This document shows positions 8,118 through 22,548 of a stretch of 32,000 nucleotides of DNA, one piece after another. Position 1 is the stretch's first letter. Each line of letters starts with the position of its first letter. Source of the DNA: Candidatus Thorarchaeota archaeon (GTDB lineage: Archaea; Asgardarchaeota; Heimdallarchaeia; Hodarchaeales; Hodarchaeaceae). Below the pieces are notes generated by a model. The model did no database searches, was not told the DNA's origin, and was given only the letters and a program-made list of their open reading frames with translations. The position numbers and the translations under genes were made by a program. The stretch is taken from assembly GCA_048882505.1 (NCBI GenBank), contig JBHLRO010000002.1, forward strand, positions 390,001 through 422,000, in the 5' to 3' direction.

Positions 8118-9305
8118 CTATGTAAATACCTGGATTACATCCCCATCAGACAAGTTACGATCCAAACCAACCTTTTCTCCATCAAAAGAAGCCGAAGATC
8201 CCCATATTCGTGCAAAACGAAAATGTTTGAGCATCTTTTTTGAAAGAACCTCTATTGCGCTTTGGACAGTCGCCTGGTGTGTGTCCAAGATGATGGGCCG
8301 TTCGGCTATCTCACCATTGGTGTCACGGGTATAGATACGGATCTTTTGCAATGAGCCAAAGATTTTTTCCTCCAATCCCTCGAATCCTTCTTGTGGATAC
8401 GTTGAGACAGGCACAACTTCGAAGGACAAACCTTTTTCTCTTAGATAATTAATTAGATTCGTAAAATTCTGCTTTGAACCTTCTAGATCGCCTTTTGTAG
8501 CGATCATTATTCCTGGTAGATAGCTAATGCTCCTATCCAGAGCATCAAGAAATTGGTCAACTGAGGTTGGACCATGAAAGCGTACAATAGCATTAAGAAA
8601 ACCATTCACTCTCATGATTTCAATAACGGCTTCTTTTCCTTTTCCCGCAAAAAAGTGGCTATTAAACACCTGTATATTCCCAGAACCTACTTTCTCAATT
8701 GTAACTGCAGGCCTAGTAACGTTTACACGAATTTTCCCTTTATCCAGTTCATTAAGGACCAGCTCCAGCTGCTGGATTGGATCTTGTGATAGATCTATAG
8801 ATATTAAAAGACAATCTGCGTTTCTAATTCCTGCAAGAACTAACTTACCTGACATTTCTCCCCTCGAACTTCCCTTCACAATGGCAGGTAACTCAACAAG
8901 TTGTATACGGGCGCCCTTTGCTGTAATTGATCCCACAGCTGGTTTAACTGTGGTAAAAGGATAGGCCCCGACCTTGGTAGCCTCCGCCTGGGCAAGGTTA
9001 TTAAGAAAAGATGATTTGCCCGAATTGGTGGTTCCAATTATCGCCACCTGGGCATCTTCCCCTTTGGGTATTAGCCATTTCTCGCCAGATCCTTTCTTAG
9101 ATTGGCGTAATTTTTCTTGTTGTGCCTTCAAACGTTTTAATTTTTGTTTAACCATTCTAAGGTGGTTTTCCACTCCCTTGTGCTTGACTACCACGCCTAA
9201 AAAGCGTTCCAAGTGCATAATCTGTTCTTCAGTTCCTGAGGCTTGTAAATATTTATCCCACTCTACCTGGGCTTCTCGATTTAGGTTTGTTGGCAATTCT
9301 TCCAC
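8118..9305 (-). CDS. drg: DRG/Rbg1-like OBG-family GTPase with C-terminal TGS domain
   Basis: DRG-type N-terminus HKGVENHLRMVKQKL, G1 GTTNSGKS, G2 YPFTT, variant G3 ELPA, G4 TKGD, and TGS tail LSDGDVIQVF. Confidence 0.9.
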   Translation of the reverse strand: MEELPTNLNREAQVEWDKYLQASGTEEQIMHLERFLGVVVKHKGVENHLRMVKQKLKRLKAQQEKLRQSKKGSGEKWLIPKGEDAQVAIIGTTNSGKSSFLNNLAQAEATKVGAYPFTTVKPAVGSITAKGARIQLVELPAIVKGSSRGEMSGKLVLAGIRNADCLLISIDLSQDPIQQLELVLNELDKGKIRVNVTRPAVTIEKVGSGNIQVFNSHFFAGKGKEAVIEIMRVNGFLNAIVRFHGPTSVDQFLDALDRSISYLPGIMIATKGDLEGSKQNFTNLINYLREKGLSFEVVPVSTYPQEGFEGLEEKIFGSLQKIRIYTRDTNGEIAERPIILDTHQATVQSAIEVLSKKMLKHFRFARIWGSSASFDGEKVGLDRNLSDGDVIQVFT

Positions 9306-11300: not shown

Positions 11301-12428
11301 TTAAGTTTCTCTCAACGTTAAACGACTACCAAACAGGAATAAGACAACAAATAGAAGCTGAACTATCAAGTCTACATTCCAGGGTGTGAGTATGAGGCCT
11401 TCGATGGAAATTTGACGTAGAAGGTGTACTCCATAAGTTGTGGGTATGAGGTATGCTACCCAACGCACCACCTCTGGAATTTGATTAAGGGGAATGATAA
11501 TGCCTGACAAGAGGAGCGCTGGAAGGATCACTATGGGTACAAATTGAATAGCTTGAAATTCATTACGTGCATAGGAGGATAAGAAAATGGCAAGAACAAG
11601 ACCTGTCCACCCACAAACCACAGCTCCAATGTATAATGAAGCGAGTTCCGCCAATCCGAATGCCAGCTGAATGTTAAACAATATACTCGCGGCGATTAGA
11701 ATTACAGTGGTTTGGAAAAACGATAAGATGCTAAATGCTCCTAAATATCCAAAAATGATCTGTCCTTTGTCGTACGGACATTGAAGAAGGAGATCGAGAG
11801 TTCCTGCCTTTCTTTCTCCAATAAGGTTCATGATAATTAGGATGAAAGATAAAAAGAAGACACCAAAAATAATCATGGCCGGGGCAAAGAATTCAATTGT
11901 CGTTAGATCCTCTCCATAGGCGTACGAAATTTCAACACCTAAATTTCCGCGAAATTCCCCAATCGCATCCTGAAATGCTTGTTGAAAAGCCGCTAGGACC
12001 ACCACCCCTACTTGCGGGTTAGAATTATCGAGATAGAGTTGAATCGAAACATTTTCACCGCTTAGAGAAGCGACGTTTGATGTGAAATTCTCGGGGATAA
12101 TGACTGCACAAATAAATCTTTTTTCTTCGACCGCTCGTTTTGCAGTATCAAAATCATCAGTTAAATTGATAACGTCCACTTTTTGGGATTCCTCCAAATT
12201 AGTTTTCATCTGTTTACCAATGGAGGGGATAAGAAATGGAGGAAAAATTACAGCTGCGTCTGTGTCCTGATTTATGACGATAATCGGGACGTGGTTAATT
12301 TCTCCTCCAAATGCCACGCCAAAAAGCGCAATATACATTAACGGGGCCATGAAAGCTAAACCTAAGGTTCGGCGGTCACGAAGAAGTTGCTTCCATATTC
12401 GTTTTGTTACAAGGTAAGCCAACCACAT
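11301..12428 (-). CDS. ABC-2 type exporter permease (YbhS/YhhJ-like)
   Basis: N-terminal TM, extracytoplasmic domain (PIIVINQD), five C-terminal TMs and ERKAGTL. Starts 1 nt after the ATPase stop. Confidence 0.93.
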   Translation of the reverse strand: MWLAYLVTKRIWKQLLRDRRTLGLAFMAPLMYIALFGVAFGGEINHVPIIVINQDTDAAVIFPPFLIPSIGKQMKTNLEESQKVDVINLTDDFDTAKRAVEEKRFICAVIIPENFTSNVASLSGENVSIQLYLDNSNPQVGVVVLAAFQQAFQDAIGEFRGNLGVEISYAYGEDLTTIEFFAPAMIIFGVFFLSFILIIMNLIGERKAGTLDLLLQCPYDKGQIIFGYLGAFSILSFFQTTVILIAASILFNIQLAFGLAELASLYIGAVVCGWTGLVLAIFLSSYARNEFQAIQFVPIVILPALLLSGIIIPLNQIPEVVRWVAYLIPTTYGVHLLRQISIEGLILTPWNVDLIVQLLFVVLFLFGSRLTLRET

Positions 12429-12429
12429 G

Positions 12430-13176
12430 CTATAGAACCCCCGTTCGAGTATTAGAAATCAGATTGAGAAACATTTCTTCCATATTTTGAGCATGGGTTT
12501 TCGTGATTAAATTCCGAGGAGTATCAATCGCAACCATCCGCCCATCTCGCATCACACCAACTCGATCGGCCCATTCGGCCTCATTTAGATAATGGGTAGT
12601 TACCAGGATCGTTGTTCCATCTTTACGGGCCTTTTCTCGAAAATATCGCCAGAAATCCCGTCTTAATACGGGATCAAGGCCGACAGTTGGTTCATCGAGA
12701 AATGCAATTTCAGGATTATTTACCATAGCAGCTGCTAAAGCAGTCCGTTGTTGAGTTCCCCCAGATAAATGAACAGCCAATTTATCTTGATGATCAGTGA
12801 GCGAGAGCTTCTCGATCATAAGATCCGTATTGATTTTTGTCTGATCACTGGAAAGCCCTTTAGCTTGTGCAAAGAATCGGATATTTTCACGTGCCGTAAG
12901 GAGATCATATAACGCTCGTTTTTGCGGCAAATAACCCATTATCCTACGTAATCTCTTTTTTTCTTGAGGGATAGTTAATCCTTTAACCTGAATCCTTCCC
13001 CTAGGTTCCGCATTCAAGATTCCCAAGAGGAGTCGAATTGTTGTGGTCTTGCCCGCTGCATTCGGCCCCACCAGGCAGAAAACTTCTCCCTGATTAACTT
13101 GGAGAGTAAGGTCGTCAACAGCAACCACATCCCCAAAAAGTTTTGAAACATTCGAAATCTCAATGTCATTAACCAT
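12430..13176 (-). CDS. ABC exporter ATP-binding subunit
   Basis: Walker A GPNAAGKT, signature LSGG, Walker B AFLDEP, H-loop TTH. Start reassigned to ATG 13176 because GGTGA (13182-13186) lies 5 nt upstream. Confidence 0.95.
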   Translation of the reverse strand: MVNDIEISNVSKLFGDVVAVDDLTLQVNQGEVFCLVGPNAAGKTTTIRLLLGILNAEPRGRIQVKGLTIPQEKKRLRRIMGYLPQKRALYDLLTARENIRFFAQAKGLSSDQTKINTDLMIEKLSLTDHQDKLAVHLSGGTQQRTALAAAMVNNPEIAFLDEPTVGLDPVLRRDFWRYFREKARKDGTTILVTTHYLNEAEWADRVGVMRDGRMVAIDTPRNLITKTHAQNMEEMFLNLISNTRTGVL

Positions 13177-13277
13177 TTGTATCACCGACATGATGAAAAC
13201 AATTGAGGTACGAATAGAAGGCAAAAAGCATTTCAGACAAGGATGATTTCACTACATCAGGTTTGTTAGAATTAAAC

Positions 13278-14183
13278 TCAGTAGGTCATGAATATTTTGC
13301 GGGTCTGATCTAAAAAATTCTCGTTCAGCTCTTCCATGGTTGAATAAGCTCCAAGTAGTTCGTCGAGCTGTTGTTCGATTGTTGCTCTGTTTGGAAGAAC
13401 ACTACGGAACAATACTGGGAAGAGAACAACCACAAGACCGTAGTTCGCGCCGATGGTATTCTGTATCCGCTTATCAGTGAATTTTTTTGACACCATTTGA
13501 AAGGCATACACCAAACCGCGATACTTTTCATAATTAGGAACAGGAAGTTCATAGAGGCCTCGGGCATAATCGTGGCCAGCTCCCGTTGCTGACATATAAT
13601 ATGTGCCGATTTTGATCAGGAAGTTTTCTTTCTCCATATCTGTGATTGAATCCTCAAACGGTAATTTTGATGTCAAAAAAGGCTCTGGACCGACCTCTCC
13701 GAACTTAAAAACAGATACAGAGAGTTGTTCTGGGTTTTCTGCTAGTTGTCGGGCTAATACGGTCTCTTGTCGTGCCCGATGTTCAAGCAATACCCGAGTT
13801 ATGGTTTCTTTCAAGTTATCAGGTTCAAACATCTCTTCTTTGGTTAAATAATCTTGAATTCCCAGTTTCATTGCTTGTACAGCAACTCGTTCCGACCCTA
13901 GACCAGTTATCATGATGATTGGTATCTCTCGATTTAGGCGGCGAATTTCCTCGATGACTTCGATTCCTGATTTTCCAGGGAGGGAGTAATCCACAAGTAT
14001 TAGATTAAAGTCATTACCTTCTTTAATTTTTTTAATAGCATCCTCTCCAGTTTCAAATACCATGATGCTATTGATTCCAGCTTCTTTTATTCTTTTAATG
14101 AAAAGATATTGATGGTCCCGGGAATCTTCAACAAGCAAGACCTTTGCGTCAACTATAGGGTCAAAATCATCCTTCGATGCCAT
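13278..14183 (-). CDS. Response regulator: canonical receiver plus ~150-aa non-HTH output domain (longin/uDENN-like by inference)
   Basis: LLVED acidic pocket, phosphoacceptor D65 (LILVDYSLP), T93 and K115. The C-terminal domain begins LSVSVFKFGEVGPEP. Confidence 0.9.
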   Translation of the reverse strand: MASKDDFDPIVDAKVLLVEDSRDHQYLFIKRIKEAGINSIMVFETGEDAIKKIKEGNDFNLILVDYSLPGKSGIEVIEEIRRLNREIPIIMITGLGSERVAVQAMKLGIQDYLTKEEMFEPDNLKETITRVLLEHRARQETVLARQLAENPEQLSVSVFKFGEVGPEPFLTSKLPFEDSITDMEKENFLIKIGTYYMSATGAGHDYARGLYELPVPNYEKYRGLVYAFQMVSKKFTDKRIQNTIGANYGLVVVLFPVLFRSVLPNRATIEQQLDELLGAYSTMEELNENFLDQTRKIFMTY

Positions 14184-14389: not shown

Positions 14390-15400
14390 TTACAGCGGCA
14401 AATAACCATGGTTTTTGAACCATTCGTATGATTCCAGAATCGTTGTCTCCATATCTTTTTGAGGGCTAAACCCCAGTTCATCTCTAATCTTCTGGTCGTT
14501 AAAACGTCTTGAAGATGCAAATTTCGTGACTCTATATCTGTTAAGAGTGGTTTGCCTCCCCGTAATCTTAGCAAAAATCTCAGAGAGTACCGCGATCGTG
14601 TAAACCAGACGATAATTTAAATGCCGAGGAGGCTTGGACGGTTTAATGGTATCTACAATAAAATTAATGAAATCAATAAATAGACATTCAAAAGATTTTA
14701 AATTATAGGCCTGCCCTTTCGACTTATGCTGTTTTTCTGCTATAAGTAACAATCCTTTACAGAGGTCAAAAGGATGAATCCAGGTTGTATAGACTTGTCC
14801 ACTACGAAATATCGGGAGTTTTCGTTCATAAATCGCCTTGAAGATCTGAAACATCGTTTTTTTGTCTCTTGGCCCAATGATACTTGGGGGGCGGACGATG
14901 CTAAAATTTTTCCAACCTTGGATCCGTGAAAAATCCCAGATACACTTTTCCTGGTAAGCCTTACTTTTTTGATAAATTCTTGTAGGATTAAATGCGGTGT
15001 TTTCGTCTATGGGTATATCAGGTATAAAATGGCCATAGACCCCAGTAGAGGAAACGTGTGCGATGAAAGGATCTGTGCTAGACTGATAACAGGCGTCAAT
15101 CAGGTTATTCATACCTTCTACGTTTACCTTATATAACTCAGTCCAGCCAGCCCAGTCATCTACTAGTGAAGCTAGATTGTAAACAACATCAACATCTTTT
15201 AATGCATCTTTCAAACTACGGGCATCATTCAAATCAGCTTTAACCGGAATGAGCCCTAGTGCCTCAATATTGGCTTTACCAACTGTGTCTCGGTAGATTA
15301 CTCGAATAGAATCGTCCTTATTTCCATAAGTATTGATCAAAAGTTCATTGAGGAAACCCCCCAAGAAACCTGTTCCTCCAGTTACTAGCGAAACCACCAA
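14390..15400 (-). CDS. NAD-dependent epimerase/dehydratase (extended SDR, 3beta-HSD/OleD-like)
   Basis: VTGGTGFLG, HVSSTGVYG, catalytic YQKSK, and IVRPPSIIGP. Confidence 0.92.
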   Translation of the reverse strand: MVVSLVTGGTGFLGGFLNELLINTYGNKDDSIRVIYRDTVGKANIEALGLIPVKADLNDARSLKDALKDVDVVYNLASLVDDWAGWTELYKVNVEGMNNLIDACYQSSTDPFIAHVSSTGVYGHFIPDIPIDENTAFNPTRIYQKSKAYQEKCIWDFSRIQGWKNFSIVRPPSIIGPRDKKTMFQIFKAIYERKLPIFRSGQVYTTWIHPFDLCKGLLLIAEKQHKSKGQAYNLKSFECLFIDFINFIVDTIKPSKPPRHLNYRLVYTIAVLSEIFAKITGRQTTLNRYRVTKFASSRRFNDQKIRDELGFSPQKDMETTILESYEWFKNHGYLPL

Positions 15401-15513: not shown

Positions 15514-16284
15514 TTAGCCATTTTTAAGACCCCAACCCAAAGTTTCTAAAGTTGTGTGATTTTGGATCATCTCATAATCTTTATCAGAGACTGTAAATCC
15601 CATGAATTTTCTTTTGTTGCGTAAGCATGCTATTAACAAGTGATTAGATGCCAAAAAAGGATCCAAAACCAAATCCCCTTCATTACTAGCAATTCTAATA
15701 CATTTTTCTAGAATGTAACCTCCCACCGATTGATCAATTTCATCAATTCTGGATTGATGAGAGGCAATCCAAACGTCCTCAAAATAGAGTTTCCCCTTCG
15801 AACTAGAATATTCACCAATTCTATTGAAGACTCGGTTCTTATCCTCTTTAAGTGACAATTTTGTGATGTATAGAATATGGGAGTGGATGGGATTAAATCG
15901 TTTTTGTGAACTCACGCCATGGTTGGGGACAGGATGTTGCCAGATGATATGGTTAACCAACCGAAACCCTGTGATATTAATTGCATTCAGTAGAAATCGG
16001 AGATTCCTCCAGTGGCAGAAAATAAACCCACATGCGGTATAACTCATTGCTCTCTTTGCTTGATTTAACCATTTTACTGAAAAATCCTGATAATTTTTTT
16101 TTGGAATAAAACCATACCTATTTTGAGAATGCTTTTGAAATCTAATGGACGATAGAGTACGCTCCAGAGGGTCGGTTTGATATACTGGTTCCGTTACCAG
16201 GAGATCAACACTAGAAGATCTGATTTTCGTCATGCCAATTCTACAATCTTCAGTGTAAATCATATTAGGCTTAAGATATTCCAC
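15514..16284 (-). CDS. Beta-class N4/N6 DNA methyltransferase homologue with degenerate active sites
   Basis: Layout IYTEDC...VDLLVTEPVY...NHIIW...GDLVLDPF...RKFMG. DPPY has become EPVY and FxGxG has become FLASN. ORF intact, with GGAGT RBS 7 nt before the GTG. Confidence 0.85.
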   Translation of the reverse strand: MEYLKPNMIYTEDCRIGMTKIRSSSVDLLVTEPVYQTDPLERTLSSIRFQKHSQNRYGFIPKKNYQDFSVKWLNQAKRAMSYTACGFIFCHWRNLRFLLNAINITGFRLVNHIIWQHPVPNHGVSSQKRFNPIHSHILYITKLSLKEDKNRVFNRIGEYSSSKGKLYFEDVWIASHQSRIDEIDQSVGGYILEKCIRIASNEGDLVLDPFLASNHLLIACLRNKRKFMGFTVSDKDYEMIQNHTTLETLGWGLKNG

Positions 16285-21057: not shown

Positions 21058-22548
21058 TCATTGCTTCGGTATCTTTATCCTTACTACCGATCCTTTGTTT
21101 TTTCCAGAGGATTCAATCTCGATCTTTCCGAACAAGATTTCCTCTACAATCTTCTTAGTGATAGATAGCCCTAATCCCGTTCCTGTGGATCCTGATTCGA
21201 ATTTTGTAAATGGAGTAAACACTCGTGTTAAATCCTGCGCCGTAAACCCATATCCGTTGTCTTTTACAGTAATATGAACGTATGATAGATTTTTTACCCG
21301 TTGTTCTTCCAAAAACACTTCTATCTTTCCCGTTTCCATTGGTGAATACTTGATTGCGTTGTCGATGATATTCTGTAAAACACGTATGATCAATTCCCGA
21401 TTTCCTACGATTTCAAGCTCAGAGGGAAGAAACACCTGTAAATCTTGATTTCTTTGAATTAATTGGGGAAGAAATGCGATTTTGAGCTCATCAATCAGCT
21501 CCACCAGGTCAAAGGTTTCTTGATTGCTGATATACTTGTCCCGCTGATAATCCAAACGCTCATATTCAAGGATCGAGTCAATCATAACCACCATACGCTT
21601 AGAATTACTGATAATAACTTCAACGTGCTTCTTTACTTCAGGAGAAATAGGTCCTATAAGTCCATCACGTAATAGCTCCCCGAATCCCAGAATTGCAGAT
21701 AACGGAGATTTGAGATCATGAGTTACCGAGGAAAGGAGTTGACTCTTCTCGGCAAAACGTTTCTTCAAGTCTCTGTATTTAATTACATAAAAAAAGTCGG
21801 TTTCCTGTTTTTTTAGCTTTAAATCATCCTTTACTTCGACTAGTGGCAGTAAATGTGCCAAAGATGCCTCTAAAATATCATTTTGTGTCTTTGTAAGGAA
21901 GAGTTCTTTATTTAAACGATCCTTCTCCAATTCCTTGAGTTTTAATTCCTCGAAAAGTAGCCATATCGGTTGATAAATCTGTCTGAGGCTTGATGGAAAT
22001 GATTCTTCTCCTTTTTTTTCACTGTAAAAGAGATTTGGAAGAATTTGTGAGGGGTTTAGGCAGAAAAAAGGGTATCGTTGTGCGATTTTAAACGTCATTG
22101 GCGATTTCAGTTTTTTTTCCAAGAAAATCGCATATATTGAATACTTGATATCCCTATCAATTAGTTTCAAGATGAGCGTGGTTTCCGCATAAAGGACAAA
22201 TTTTTTTGATACAGCGACACGGGAAAAATCAAGATAGATTGCAATATGGTTAATGGAACTGGGCAACAACGATACGATACTTTCCAGTTCCTTTTGAAAT
22301 CTAATTCTAAAGGTTTTTGAGAGAGTTTTCCTGGGTGGAAGAGTAATATTATGGATATCGAATCCCTCTCTTTGATAGGAAGGAAGGTTATCCAGGTTAT
22401 AGCTTTTCTTTGAGAACAAAAACAAGTAATTACTCTGTTTTCTCCGTGAAAGAGCAGACTTGAGAAAGGAGGCCAGAACGCTTTCGTCATCAAACAAACA
22501 GAAAATTCTATCTGGTTCTTCTACCATATCCACGGTTTTTTGCTCCAA
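21058..22548 (-). CDS. Soluble sensor histidine kinase (divergent MEDS-like sensor, coiled coil, HisKA, HATPase_c)
   Basis: H-box SVTHDLKSPL, N-box QNIIDNAIKYS, G1 VKDNGYG, G2 GTGLGLSI. No TM segment. The N-terminal domain ends RYPFFCLNPSQILPNLFY, like the MEDS HP...NPxY terminus. Confidence 0.92.
   Translation of the reverse strand: MEQKTVDMVEEPDRIFCLFDDESVLASFLKSALSRRKQSNYLFLFSKKSYNLDNLPSYQREGFDIHNITLPPRKTLSKTFRIRFQKELESIVSLLPSSINHIAIYLDFSRVAVSKKFVLYAETTLILKLIDRDIKYSIYAIFLEKKLKSPMTFKIAQRYPFFCLNPSQILPNLFYSEKKGEESFPSSLRQIYQPIWLLFEELKLKELEKDRLNKELFLTKTQNDILEASLAHLLPLVEVKDDLKLKKQETDFFYVIKYRDLKKRFAEKSQLLSSVTHDLKSPLSAILGFGELLRDGLIGPISPEVKKHVEVIISNSKRMVVMIDSILEYERLDYQRDKYISNQETFDLVELIDELKIAFLPQLIQRNQDLQVFLPSELEIVGNRELIIRVLQNIIDNAIKYSPMETGKIEVFLEEQRVKNLSYVHITVKDNGYGFTAQDLTRVFTPFTKFESGSTGTGLGLSITKKIVEEILFGKIEIESSGKNKGSVVRIKIPKQ

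Follow-up and report, generated by a model that had tools for sequence, protein, structure and literature searches.

The gene lying at positions 13278..14183 on the minus strand of the window (the 32,000-nucleotide stretch of DNA that we analysed) encodes a 301-amino acid response regulator, P0001, recognised from the open reading frame list and its translation. It comprises a receiver (REC) domain, a helical linker and a C-terminal domain that is predicted to adopt the longin fold, of the type found in folliculin (FLCN) and NPRL2. We put at about one in two the chance that P0001, from a Heimdall-group (Hodarchaeales-like) archaeon, is an orphan response regulator of the two-component kind in which a longin gated by phosphorylation regulates a small GTPase, possibly as a GAP. 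A class of receiver-longin proteins has already been published, and P0001 is a further member.

Residues 15–128 (13800..14141, minus strand) match the Pfam family Response_reg (PF00072) with E = 5e-23 and a score of 81.8 bits, where the cut-off is 30.2. The same region is modelled as a (βα)5 domain, and is aligned by Foldseek with the receivers of CheY, NtrC1 and PhoB with TM scores of up to 0.94 by target. In an alignment of 32 orthologues the CheY catalytic set is found as E19/D20, D65, T93, Y112 and K115, with the spacing of D12–D13, D57, T87, Y106 and K109 of CheY. All 32 keep D20, D65, T93, Y112 and K115 unchanged, and the full set is invariant or nearly so. To judge by this set of residues the receiver is catalytically complete, and D65 (codon at 13989..13991, minus strand) is the predicted phospho-acceptor.

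The full-length AlphaFold2 model (pLDDT 84) shows the (βα)5 receiver, a 29-residue helix that runs from α5 of the receiver into the linker (residues 121–149 by DSSP; 13737..13823, minus strand), and then a domain with the order β-β-α-β-β-β-α-α. The structures aligned with P0001 over its whole length by Foldseek are proteins in which a receiver is connected through a helix to a GAF or GGDEF domain (6oaq and 6zxb). There are 35 full-length orthologues of about 301 amino acids, labelled as Hodarchaeales, Heimdall or Promethearchaeota, with 51–94% identity over residues 140–301. Among the 32 that were aligned 88 positions are invariant, and 40 of these lie at residue 147 or later. The existence of these 35 orthologues, together with the 157 cluster representatives that carry the C-terminal domain (see below), shows that the observation is not due to chance.

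The preliminary description had recognised a canonical receiver in this open reading frame, followed by a domain of about 150 residues having no HTH, GGDEF or kinase motif, and both are borne out. For residues ~150–301 neither Pfam nor NCBIfam gives any match at a threshold as lax as E ≤ 10, and the Pfam search at that threshold gave no match of P0001 to longin, Folliculin (PF11704), NPR2 (PF06218) or Robl_LC7. Searches of PDB sequences with profiles made from alignments of the P0001 domain and of the family of P0198, a second protein of this kind discussed below, returned only matches at the level of chance (for example McrB, TOM1 and DBF4; E 0.4–1.4). A longin-like fold had been proposed from a putative first hairpin and a guessed order of strands and helices. 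The hairpin string VSVFKFGEVGPEP is found at residues 156–168, and the guessed order is that given by DSSP for the AlphaFold2 models, with strands at 155–161 and 166–171, a helix at 182–200, strands at 209–214, 222–231 and 246–255, and helices at 263–278 and 288–297.

A Foldseek search with the whole protein was swamped by receiver matches and was thus uninformative on the output domain. We therefore modelled the domain alone, from an alignment of 133 copies of the C-terminal domain. The resulting AlphaFold2 model (pLDDT 89.3, pTM 0.85) has the order ββαβββαα, with strands in its own numbering at 8–14, 19–24, 62–67, 74–84 and 99–109, and helices at 35–54, 119–131 and 141–152. The sheet has no N-terminal helix lying against it and there are two C-terminal helices, which is the topology of a longin. 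By the AlphaFold2 model, Foldseek, VIA-align and the ESM Atlas the longin domain extends over residues 153–301 (13281..13727, minus strand). The chain ends four residues past the last longin helix, with no DENN or other C-terminal domain.

Structural searches place longins at the top, in agreement with the fold originally proposed, and no DNA-binding or enzymatic family was matched in them. The first PDB match by Foldseek is 8yqg, the longin of a Lokiarchaeal Roadblock-Longin protein (E 8e-5, TM 0.57, probability 1.00), with further matches to Npr2/NPRL2/NPRL3, FLCN/FNIP2, Ykt6, DENND10, TRAPP longins and Lst4. In an exhaustive search over 48,161 chains using VIA-align, 8yqg is again at the top with Z = 12.7 (132 residues, 3.0 Å), and is followed by the Lst4 longin (11.2), FLCN (10.2) and C9orf72–SMCR8 (9.3), all four alignments spanning 125–138 residues. 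Next come AP-3 sigma (8.9), FNIP2 (8.7), NPRL2 (8.3), TRAPPC (8.2), Npr2 (8.1) and Mon1–Ccz1 (7.9). Roadblock structures reach only Z = 6–7, and their alignments end near residue 135 of the model, before the two C-terminal helices. With no Pfam Robl_LC7 match and a topology that is that of a longin rather than α-β-β-α-β-β-β, nothing places the domain in the roadblock/LC7 (MglB-like) family.

The nearest fold clusters in the ESM Atlas are Asgard proteins; Pfam Folliculin is found on 23% of the members of one cluster, and NPR2 on 19% of those of another. Asgard proteins fused to Arf or Ras GTPases are also among the fold neighbours, as is eukaryotic C9orf72. On the strength of these models we conclude that the predicted output domain is a longin of the folliculin/NPRL2/SMCR8 type, and not a DNA-binding domain. 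The tie to the eukaryotic GAP longins is made by fold and short motifs, and is thin at the level of sequence.

Three motifs stand out in the 133 aligned copies of the domain. A GP motif (G165–P166; 13686..13691, minus strand) lies at the end of the β1–β2 loop, directly before β2, with the glycine present in 97% and the proline in 79% of members. In the β4–β5 loop is the sequence D237-K-R239 (13467..13475, minus strand), of which the aspartate is conserved in 96% and the arginine in 95%; the model has its lowest confidence in this loop (mean pLDDT 64 for residues 238–247), which is probably flexible. The third, G201-A-G203 (13575..13583, minus strand), is at the end of helix α1 and is GQG in most of the family (G201 90%, Q202 77% and G203 97%); it is followed by G209 and P214, each 98% conserved. 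In longins the strands of the sheet lie in the order 2-1-5-4-3, by which the β1–β2 and β4–β5 loops should both be located at one end of it.

The combination of a GP motif just before β2 and a neighbouring arginine finger is common to FLCN, NPRL2, SMCR8 and a class of Heimdallarchaeial longins; C9orf72 has the GP motif and not the arginine finger, and the longins of FNIP2, NPRL3, adaptors, TRAPP and DENND proteins do not have the GP motif (PMC12290439). R147 of SMCR8 has been seen in the active site of ARF1 (PMC8213707). By its conserved residues the domain family fits this description of the GAP-type longins, and R239 is a candidate arginine finger only, whose putative counterparts would be R164 of FLCN, R78 of NPRL2 and R147 of SMCR8.

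The domain is widely distributed in one group of organisms. A phmmer search of a library of 1.84 billion representatives found at least 157 cluster representatives at E ≤ 1e-3, in which the domain is a discrete module of ~140 amino acids that is usually C-terminal. Every named member comes from an Asgard metagenome-assembled genome, and the family is Asgard-restricted. Within the phylum we applied a profile of the domain to 201 genomes. It matched all 44 of the other genomes that were sampled from six families of the class to which the window belongs, and outside that class only 6.

Among 120 members scanned with Pfam the partners of the domain are PAS (28), TPR (27), REC (22) and GAF (8), and some 20 of the 133 aligned copies are stand-alone proteins. 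At the N-terminus the family members carry input modules of signalling proteins, so the domain behaves as an output. In six members (P0099, P0145, P0158, P0161, P0172 and P0182) a Ras-family GTPase is followed by the domain, which retains the GP, GQG and D-x-R motifs. This gene fusion supports a tie between the family and small GTPases. Folliculin is the sole Pfam family to match at least three of the 133 copies (it matches four, with a best E of 3e-4), and P0001 is not among these. In a FastTree phylogeny of the domain the orthologues of P0001 form one clade with a support of 0.97. Elsewhere REC-fused, GTPase-fused and stand-alone members are mixed, including within one clade with 0.997 support, pointing to repeated shuffling of domains.

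The surroundings of the gene name no partner. The window has a G+C content of about 41%, and the nearest named relatives of its proteins are found in Hodarchaeales, Heimdallarchaeota and Promethearchaeota, which marks the source as an Asgard archaeon. Upstream of the P0001 gene the methylase-like and NAD-epimerase genes are kept in four other assemblies, while the content downstream is variable, with a DRG-type (Obg-family) GTPase located between 0 and 4 genes away. We rejected the DRG-type GTPase as a target; the order of all the genes hereabouts recurs too and DRG is not a member of the Ras superfamily, so the association is one of synteny only. In the window a pair of ABC-2 transporter genes begins 53 nt downstream. 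This was also rejected as a target, since the pairing is not kept in the four related assemblies and P0001 has no DNA-binding domain.

It had further been suggested that the kinase encoded at 21058–22548 might be the partner of P0001. This gene, six genes away, encodes a genuine HisKA/HATPase_c kinase. However, no kinase is called within 8 kb in the four related assemblies, so that conserved gene order lends no support to the suggestion and we have discarded it as the cognate kinase. None of the neighbours conserved between the window and the four related assemblies encodes a histidine kinase, a small GTPase or a roadblock protein. The P0001 gene is an orphan, and its conserved neighbours look like synteny at the level of the order.

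The genome has 13 matches to REC, about 10 to HisKA, 56 to the Ras family and 11 to roadblock (Robl_LC7), and several of its proteins are single-domain receivers. The domain profile has eight matches including P0001, and thus seven others, none of which is fused to a GTPase by Pfam. When the GTPase half of P0099 (residues 1–190) was used to search the genome, 34 matches were obtained with a smooth fall from 39% identity and no target that stood out.

A second protein of the same genome has a more informative setting. P0198, encoded on contig C6 (L013), is a protein of 299 amino acids with a receiver, a helix and a domain of ~160 amino acids. It is part of a cluster that also encodes a TPR protein, a Ras GTPase, an Arf-like GTPase, a GAF-PAS kinase, a single-domain REC protein, a RagA/Gtr1-like GTPase, a second Ras GTPase and a REC-PAS-PAS hybrid kinase, the last lying directly upstream of P0198. 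Orthologues of P0198 in three other assemblies are found in clusters of the same type, which encode kinases together with GTPases of the Rag-, Arf- and Ras-like kinds.

The C-terminal half of P0198 has the invariant motifs WDExxGP and D..VRGG.RQF, and so includes both a GP motif and a loop arginine. The spacing of WDExxGP is that of W33–D34...G38–P39 in C9orf72 (PMC12290439). The Atlas model of P0198 matches an Asgard cluster, 23% of whose members have Pfam Folliculin (TM 0.75), Asgard GTPase fusions (0.73), SMCR8 (0.71) and uDENN domains of the FLCN/SMCR8 type (0.71). A comparison of the two families by hhalign is collinear, with GP aligned on GP, but is not significant (probability 0.3, E 0.18), and we treat the families of the P0001 domain and of P0198 as separate in sequence with a common fold. 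P0001 is an orphan, whereas a conserved cluster of genes for kinases and for GTPases of the Rag, Arf and Ras types surrounds that of P0198. This context gives independent support to the view that Asgard receiver-longins work with small GTPases generally, and does not thereby name the partner of P0001. The clustering with kinases and GTPases makes P0198 the better experimental handle of the two.

Beyond the domains, fold, motifs and GTPase fusions that are observed, we infer phosphorylation control, binding to a GTPase, GAP chemistry and the kind of target in the following manner. A histidine kinase encoded elsewhere would phosphorylate D65. The signal would then pass through the α4–β5–α5 face and along the long α5/linker helix (residues 121–149), as in the REC-helix-GAF and REC-helix-GGDEF proteins, and would alter how the longin domain is paired or exposed. 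The domain would bind a GTPase of the Ras superfamily (Rag-, Arf- or Rab-like) through the face on which the GP motif and the β4–β5 loop lie, and R239 might serve as an arginine finger for GAP action. The more specific proposal that P0001 is a phosphorylation-gated GAP for a Rag- or Arf-like Asgard GTPase, in which R239 is the finger and the pocket owes its shape to the GP motif, is one that we hold only tentatively and regard as somewhat doubtful. If it were true, then in the lineage nearest to the eukaryotes a bacterial-type two-component system would occupy the position, upstream of FLCN and GATOR1, that belongs to nutrient sensors, and would constitute a living intermediate of the logic of Rag/TORC1 nutrient signalling.

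Many longins are not regulators of GTPases, such as those of SNAREs and the sigma subunits of adaptors, and in SNAREs and adaptor complexes longins have a role in assembly. The longin of P0001 might likewise be a pairing module that acts independently of GTPases, where phosphorylation of the receiver controls homo- or heterodimerization with longin or roadblock proteins, and a scaffold is built or dissolved. We think this rather unlikely. 8yqg, which comes nearest among the solved structures, is a homodimer of longins; the longins of adaptor sigma subunits, VAMP7, Sec22 and Ykt6 are matched at Z = 6.7–8.9; and with the seven further domain-profile matches and 11 Robl_LC7 matches in the genome, and no GTPase gene adjoining that of P0001, there is something to be said for such a role. 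Complex prediction with two copies of residues 118–301 gave a score of 0.01, to which we attach no weight for or against dimerization. Yet the conserved GP and loop arginine occupy the positions found in GAP longins and not those of SNARE or adaptor longins, there are members of the family fused to Ras-type GTPases, and in VIA-align longins of the FLCN, Lst4, C9orf72 and NPRL2 types outrank those of SNAREs and adaptors. These same fusions are hard to square with another idea, that the C-terminal domain is a second input with a GAF- or PAS-like pocket, and that its conserved glycine-rich segment (A-x-G-Q/A-G...G...P) serves to bind a small molecule, either a metabolite or a nucleotide, by which the protein would integrate phosphorylation and ligand.

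The idea of a second input draws on the α/β sandwich that is common to longin, roadblock, GAF and PAS domains, and on an alignment of the full-length model with the REC-GAF protein 6oaq over ~290 columns (TM 0.43). Foldseek also lists LOV and PAS domains, with a probability of 0.3–0.7, the ligand-binding domains of IclR and VqsR are matched at Z = 5.9–6.1, and such a pocket would give a role to the conserved G201-x-G203...G209 motif. Nevertheless, matches to PAS, GAF and ligand-binding domains have Z of about 6 where longins have 10–12.7, PAS and LOV are absent from the top 50 of VIA-align, and the domain is usually placed C-terminal to PAS, GAF and REC sensors in the manner of an output. There is only an outside chance that it is a sensor. 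It is very improbable that P0001 acts mainly as a phosphate sink or connector, with a functional receiver that takes phosphoryl groups from a kinase and a longin tail only for localization or stability. An orphan gene with no cognate kinase or target nearby, in a genome having several single-domain REC proteins, might be read in that way, but in the 32 orthologues conservation of the longin half equals that of the receiver half (40 of the 88 invariant positions), and residues in surface loops are invariant across the family. Such conservation argues for a specific activity of the longin half, and we return to regulation of a small GTPase under phosphorylation control as the preferred reading.

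Longins of the FLCN and NPRL2 kind switch off Rag and Arf GTPases in eukaryotes, where the longin-domain GAPs FLCN–FNIP, GATOR1 and C9orf72–SMCR8 control these GTPases in nutrient signalling and membrane traffic. Eukaryotic GAP longins are heterodimers, with DENN or another C-terminal domain. Asgard archaea have small GTPases by the dozen, and to our knowledge almost none has been paired with a regulator. Receiver-longins bear on the question of the origin of the longin-domain GAPs. Since they are small, soluble, single-chain proteins that should be switchable using BeF3- or acetyl phosphate, they would offer a practical test of GAP activity in Asgard archaea and of control before TOR. The value of P0001 itself is limited, because its architecture has been published and it has no adjacent target.

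The published class to which P0001 belongs was presented by Liu et al. (bioRxiv 10.1101/2020.10.19.343400), whose Fig. 5c shows Asgard NPRL2-like longins fused to two-component domains. P0001 resembles these in being an Asgard protein that joins an NPRL2/FLCN-type longin to a two-component module, here REC. In the 2020 preprint the treatment consists of one sentence and a figure panel, without motif analysis, structural model or biochemistry; the inference made there, of a prokaryotic phosphorelay feeding into regulators of eukaryotic type, is likewise drawn for P0001. The preliminary description had taken a direct link between a phosphorelay and a small-GTPase regulator to be a feature of this protein. 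The longin fold, the six GTPase fusions and the GP motif with its arginine favour such a link, by which GTPase regulation would be the function; the link is not new, having been made by Liu et al. Our literature searches on archaeal longins and response regulators, and on Asgard kinases, GTPases and longins, found no description of a receiver-longin fusion, and there is no mention of receiver fusions to Heimdall longins in PMC12290439.

Amongst proteins of known structure the domain is most like 8yqg, which is also from an Asgard archaeon and for which our literature search found no paper. The two have 13–17% identity, and while 8yqg is fused to a roadblock domain, that of P0001 is fused to REC. 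P0001 has the longin fold in common with FLCN–FNIP, GATOR1 (NPRL2–NPRL3) and C9orf72–SMCR8 (Z 8.1–10.2 to FLCN, FNIP2, NPRL2, Npr2 and C9orf72–SMCR8), and it shares with the eukaryotic longin GAPs and the GP-motif longins of Heimdallarchaeia the GP before β2, and has in a neighbouring loop a conserved arginine that may correspond to theirs (PMC12290439; PMC8213707). It differs from the eukaryotic longin GAPs in its N-terminal receiver, in having no DENN domain, in that no heterodimer partner was found, and in having no match at the level of Pfam. A bacterial parallel is provided by Myxococcus, in which MglA–MglB and the receivers RomR, FrzX and FrzZ allow a His-Asp phosphorelay to control a Ras-like GTPase via a regulator of the roadblock/longin superfamily (PMC6785124, PMC13408092). 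There the receiver is a protein distinct from the roadblock GAP, whereas in P0001 the receiver is part of a single polypeptide with a longin in place of the roadblock.

The regulator gene, which encodes the receiver-linker-longin protein (13278-14183, minus strand), has just two constant neighbours. These are a methylase-like gene (15514-16284) and an NAD-dependent epimerase gene (14390-15400), both on the minus strand, and their order and strand are kept in all four related loci, the neighborhoods of its orthologues in four other assemblies. On the other side, an ABC-2 transporter pair (11301-13224, minus strand) comprises an ATPase (12430-13224) and a permease (11301-12428). Since the regulator stop lies only 53 nt from the start of the pair on the same strand, it is possible that they are co-transcribed. 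The pairing is not kept across the four related loci; of these, only L004 contains an ABC-2 pair, which lies further downstream.

Also downstream we find a DRG-type GTPase with MMR_HSR1, MMR_HSR1_Xtn and TGS domains (8118-9305, minus strand). Of the four related assemblies examined, three share this arrangement with the present genome, in that such a GTPase is encoded on the same strand as the REC-longin gene and zero to four genes downstream of it; in the fourth, L004, there is none within 8 kb. This proximity probably reflects order-level synteny rather than a functional link.

We have also looked at the eight matches within this genome to a profile of the longin domain. Three of these have a divergent Ras-family match 1.5-2.8 kb away, at C4:34544-36998, C8:86048-88655 and C6:105496-108973. 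The 4.3 Mb contain 56 Ras-family matches, so that one would expect ~0.6 of the eight to lie within 3 kb of one; the rough binomial p is ~0.02. The three are the weakest of the eight, with E values from 2e-8 to 7e-4. Two further Ras-family ORFs of ~355 aa (C23:25487-25969 and C4:210909-211391) extend past the GTPase domain by ~190 residues, and this extension gives no match to the longin profile. Both are possibly Rag-like GTPases whose tail is a roadblock or a divergent longin. Two very long proteins, P0061 (4023 aa) and P0115 (2751 aa), matched the longin query solely through many short repeated stretches aligned to query residues ~30-65, with each single stretch being non-significant. These are probably repeat or compositional matches rather than longin domains.

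Two-component genes and small GTPases are mixed within one cluster on contig C6 of the same genome (C6:45000-60000; L013:391-12879). The former encode a GAF-PAS kinase, a single REC protein, a REC-PAS-PAS hybrid kinase and a second REC-longin protein, P0198, of 299 aa with a WDExxGP motif. The small GTPases are two of Ras type, one Arf-like and one RagA/Gtr1-like. This type of cluster is seen again in three further Asgard assemblies (L014, L015 and L016). The C6 cluster is a better handle than the orphan REC-longin gene for matching a longin to its GTPase.
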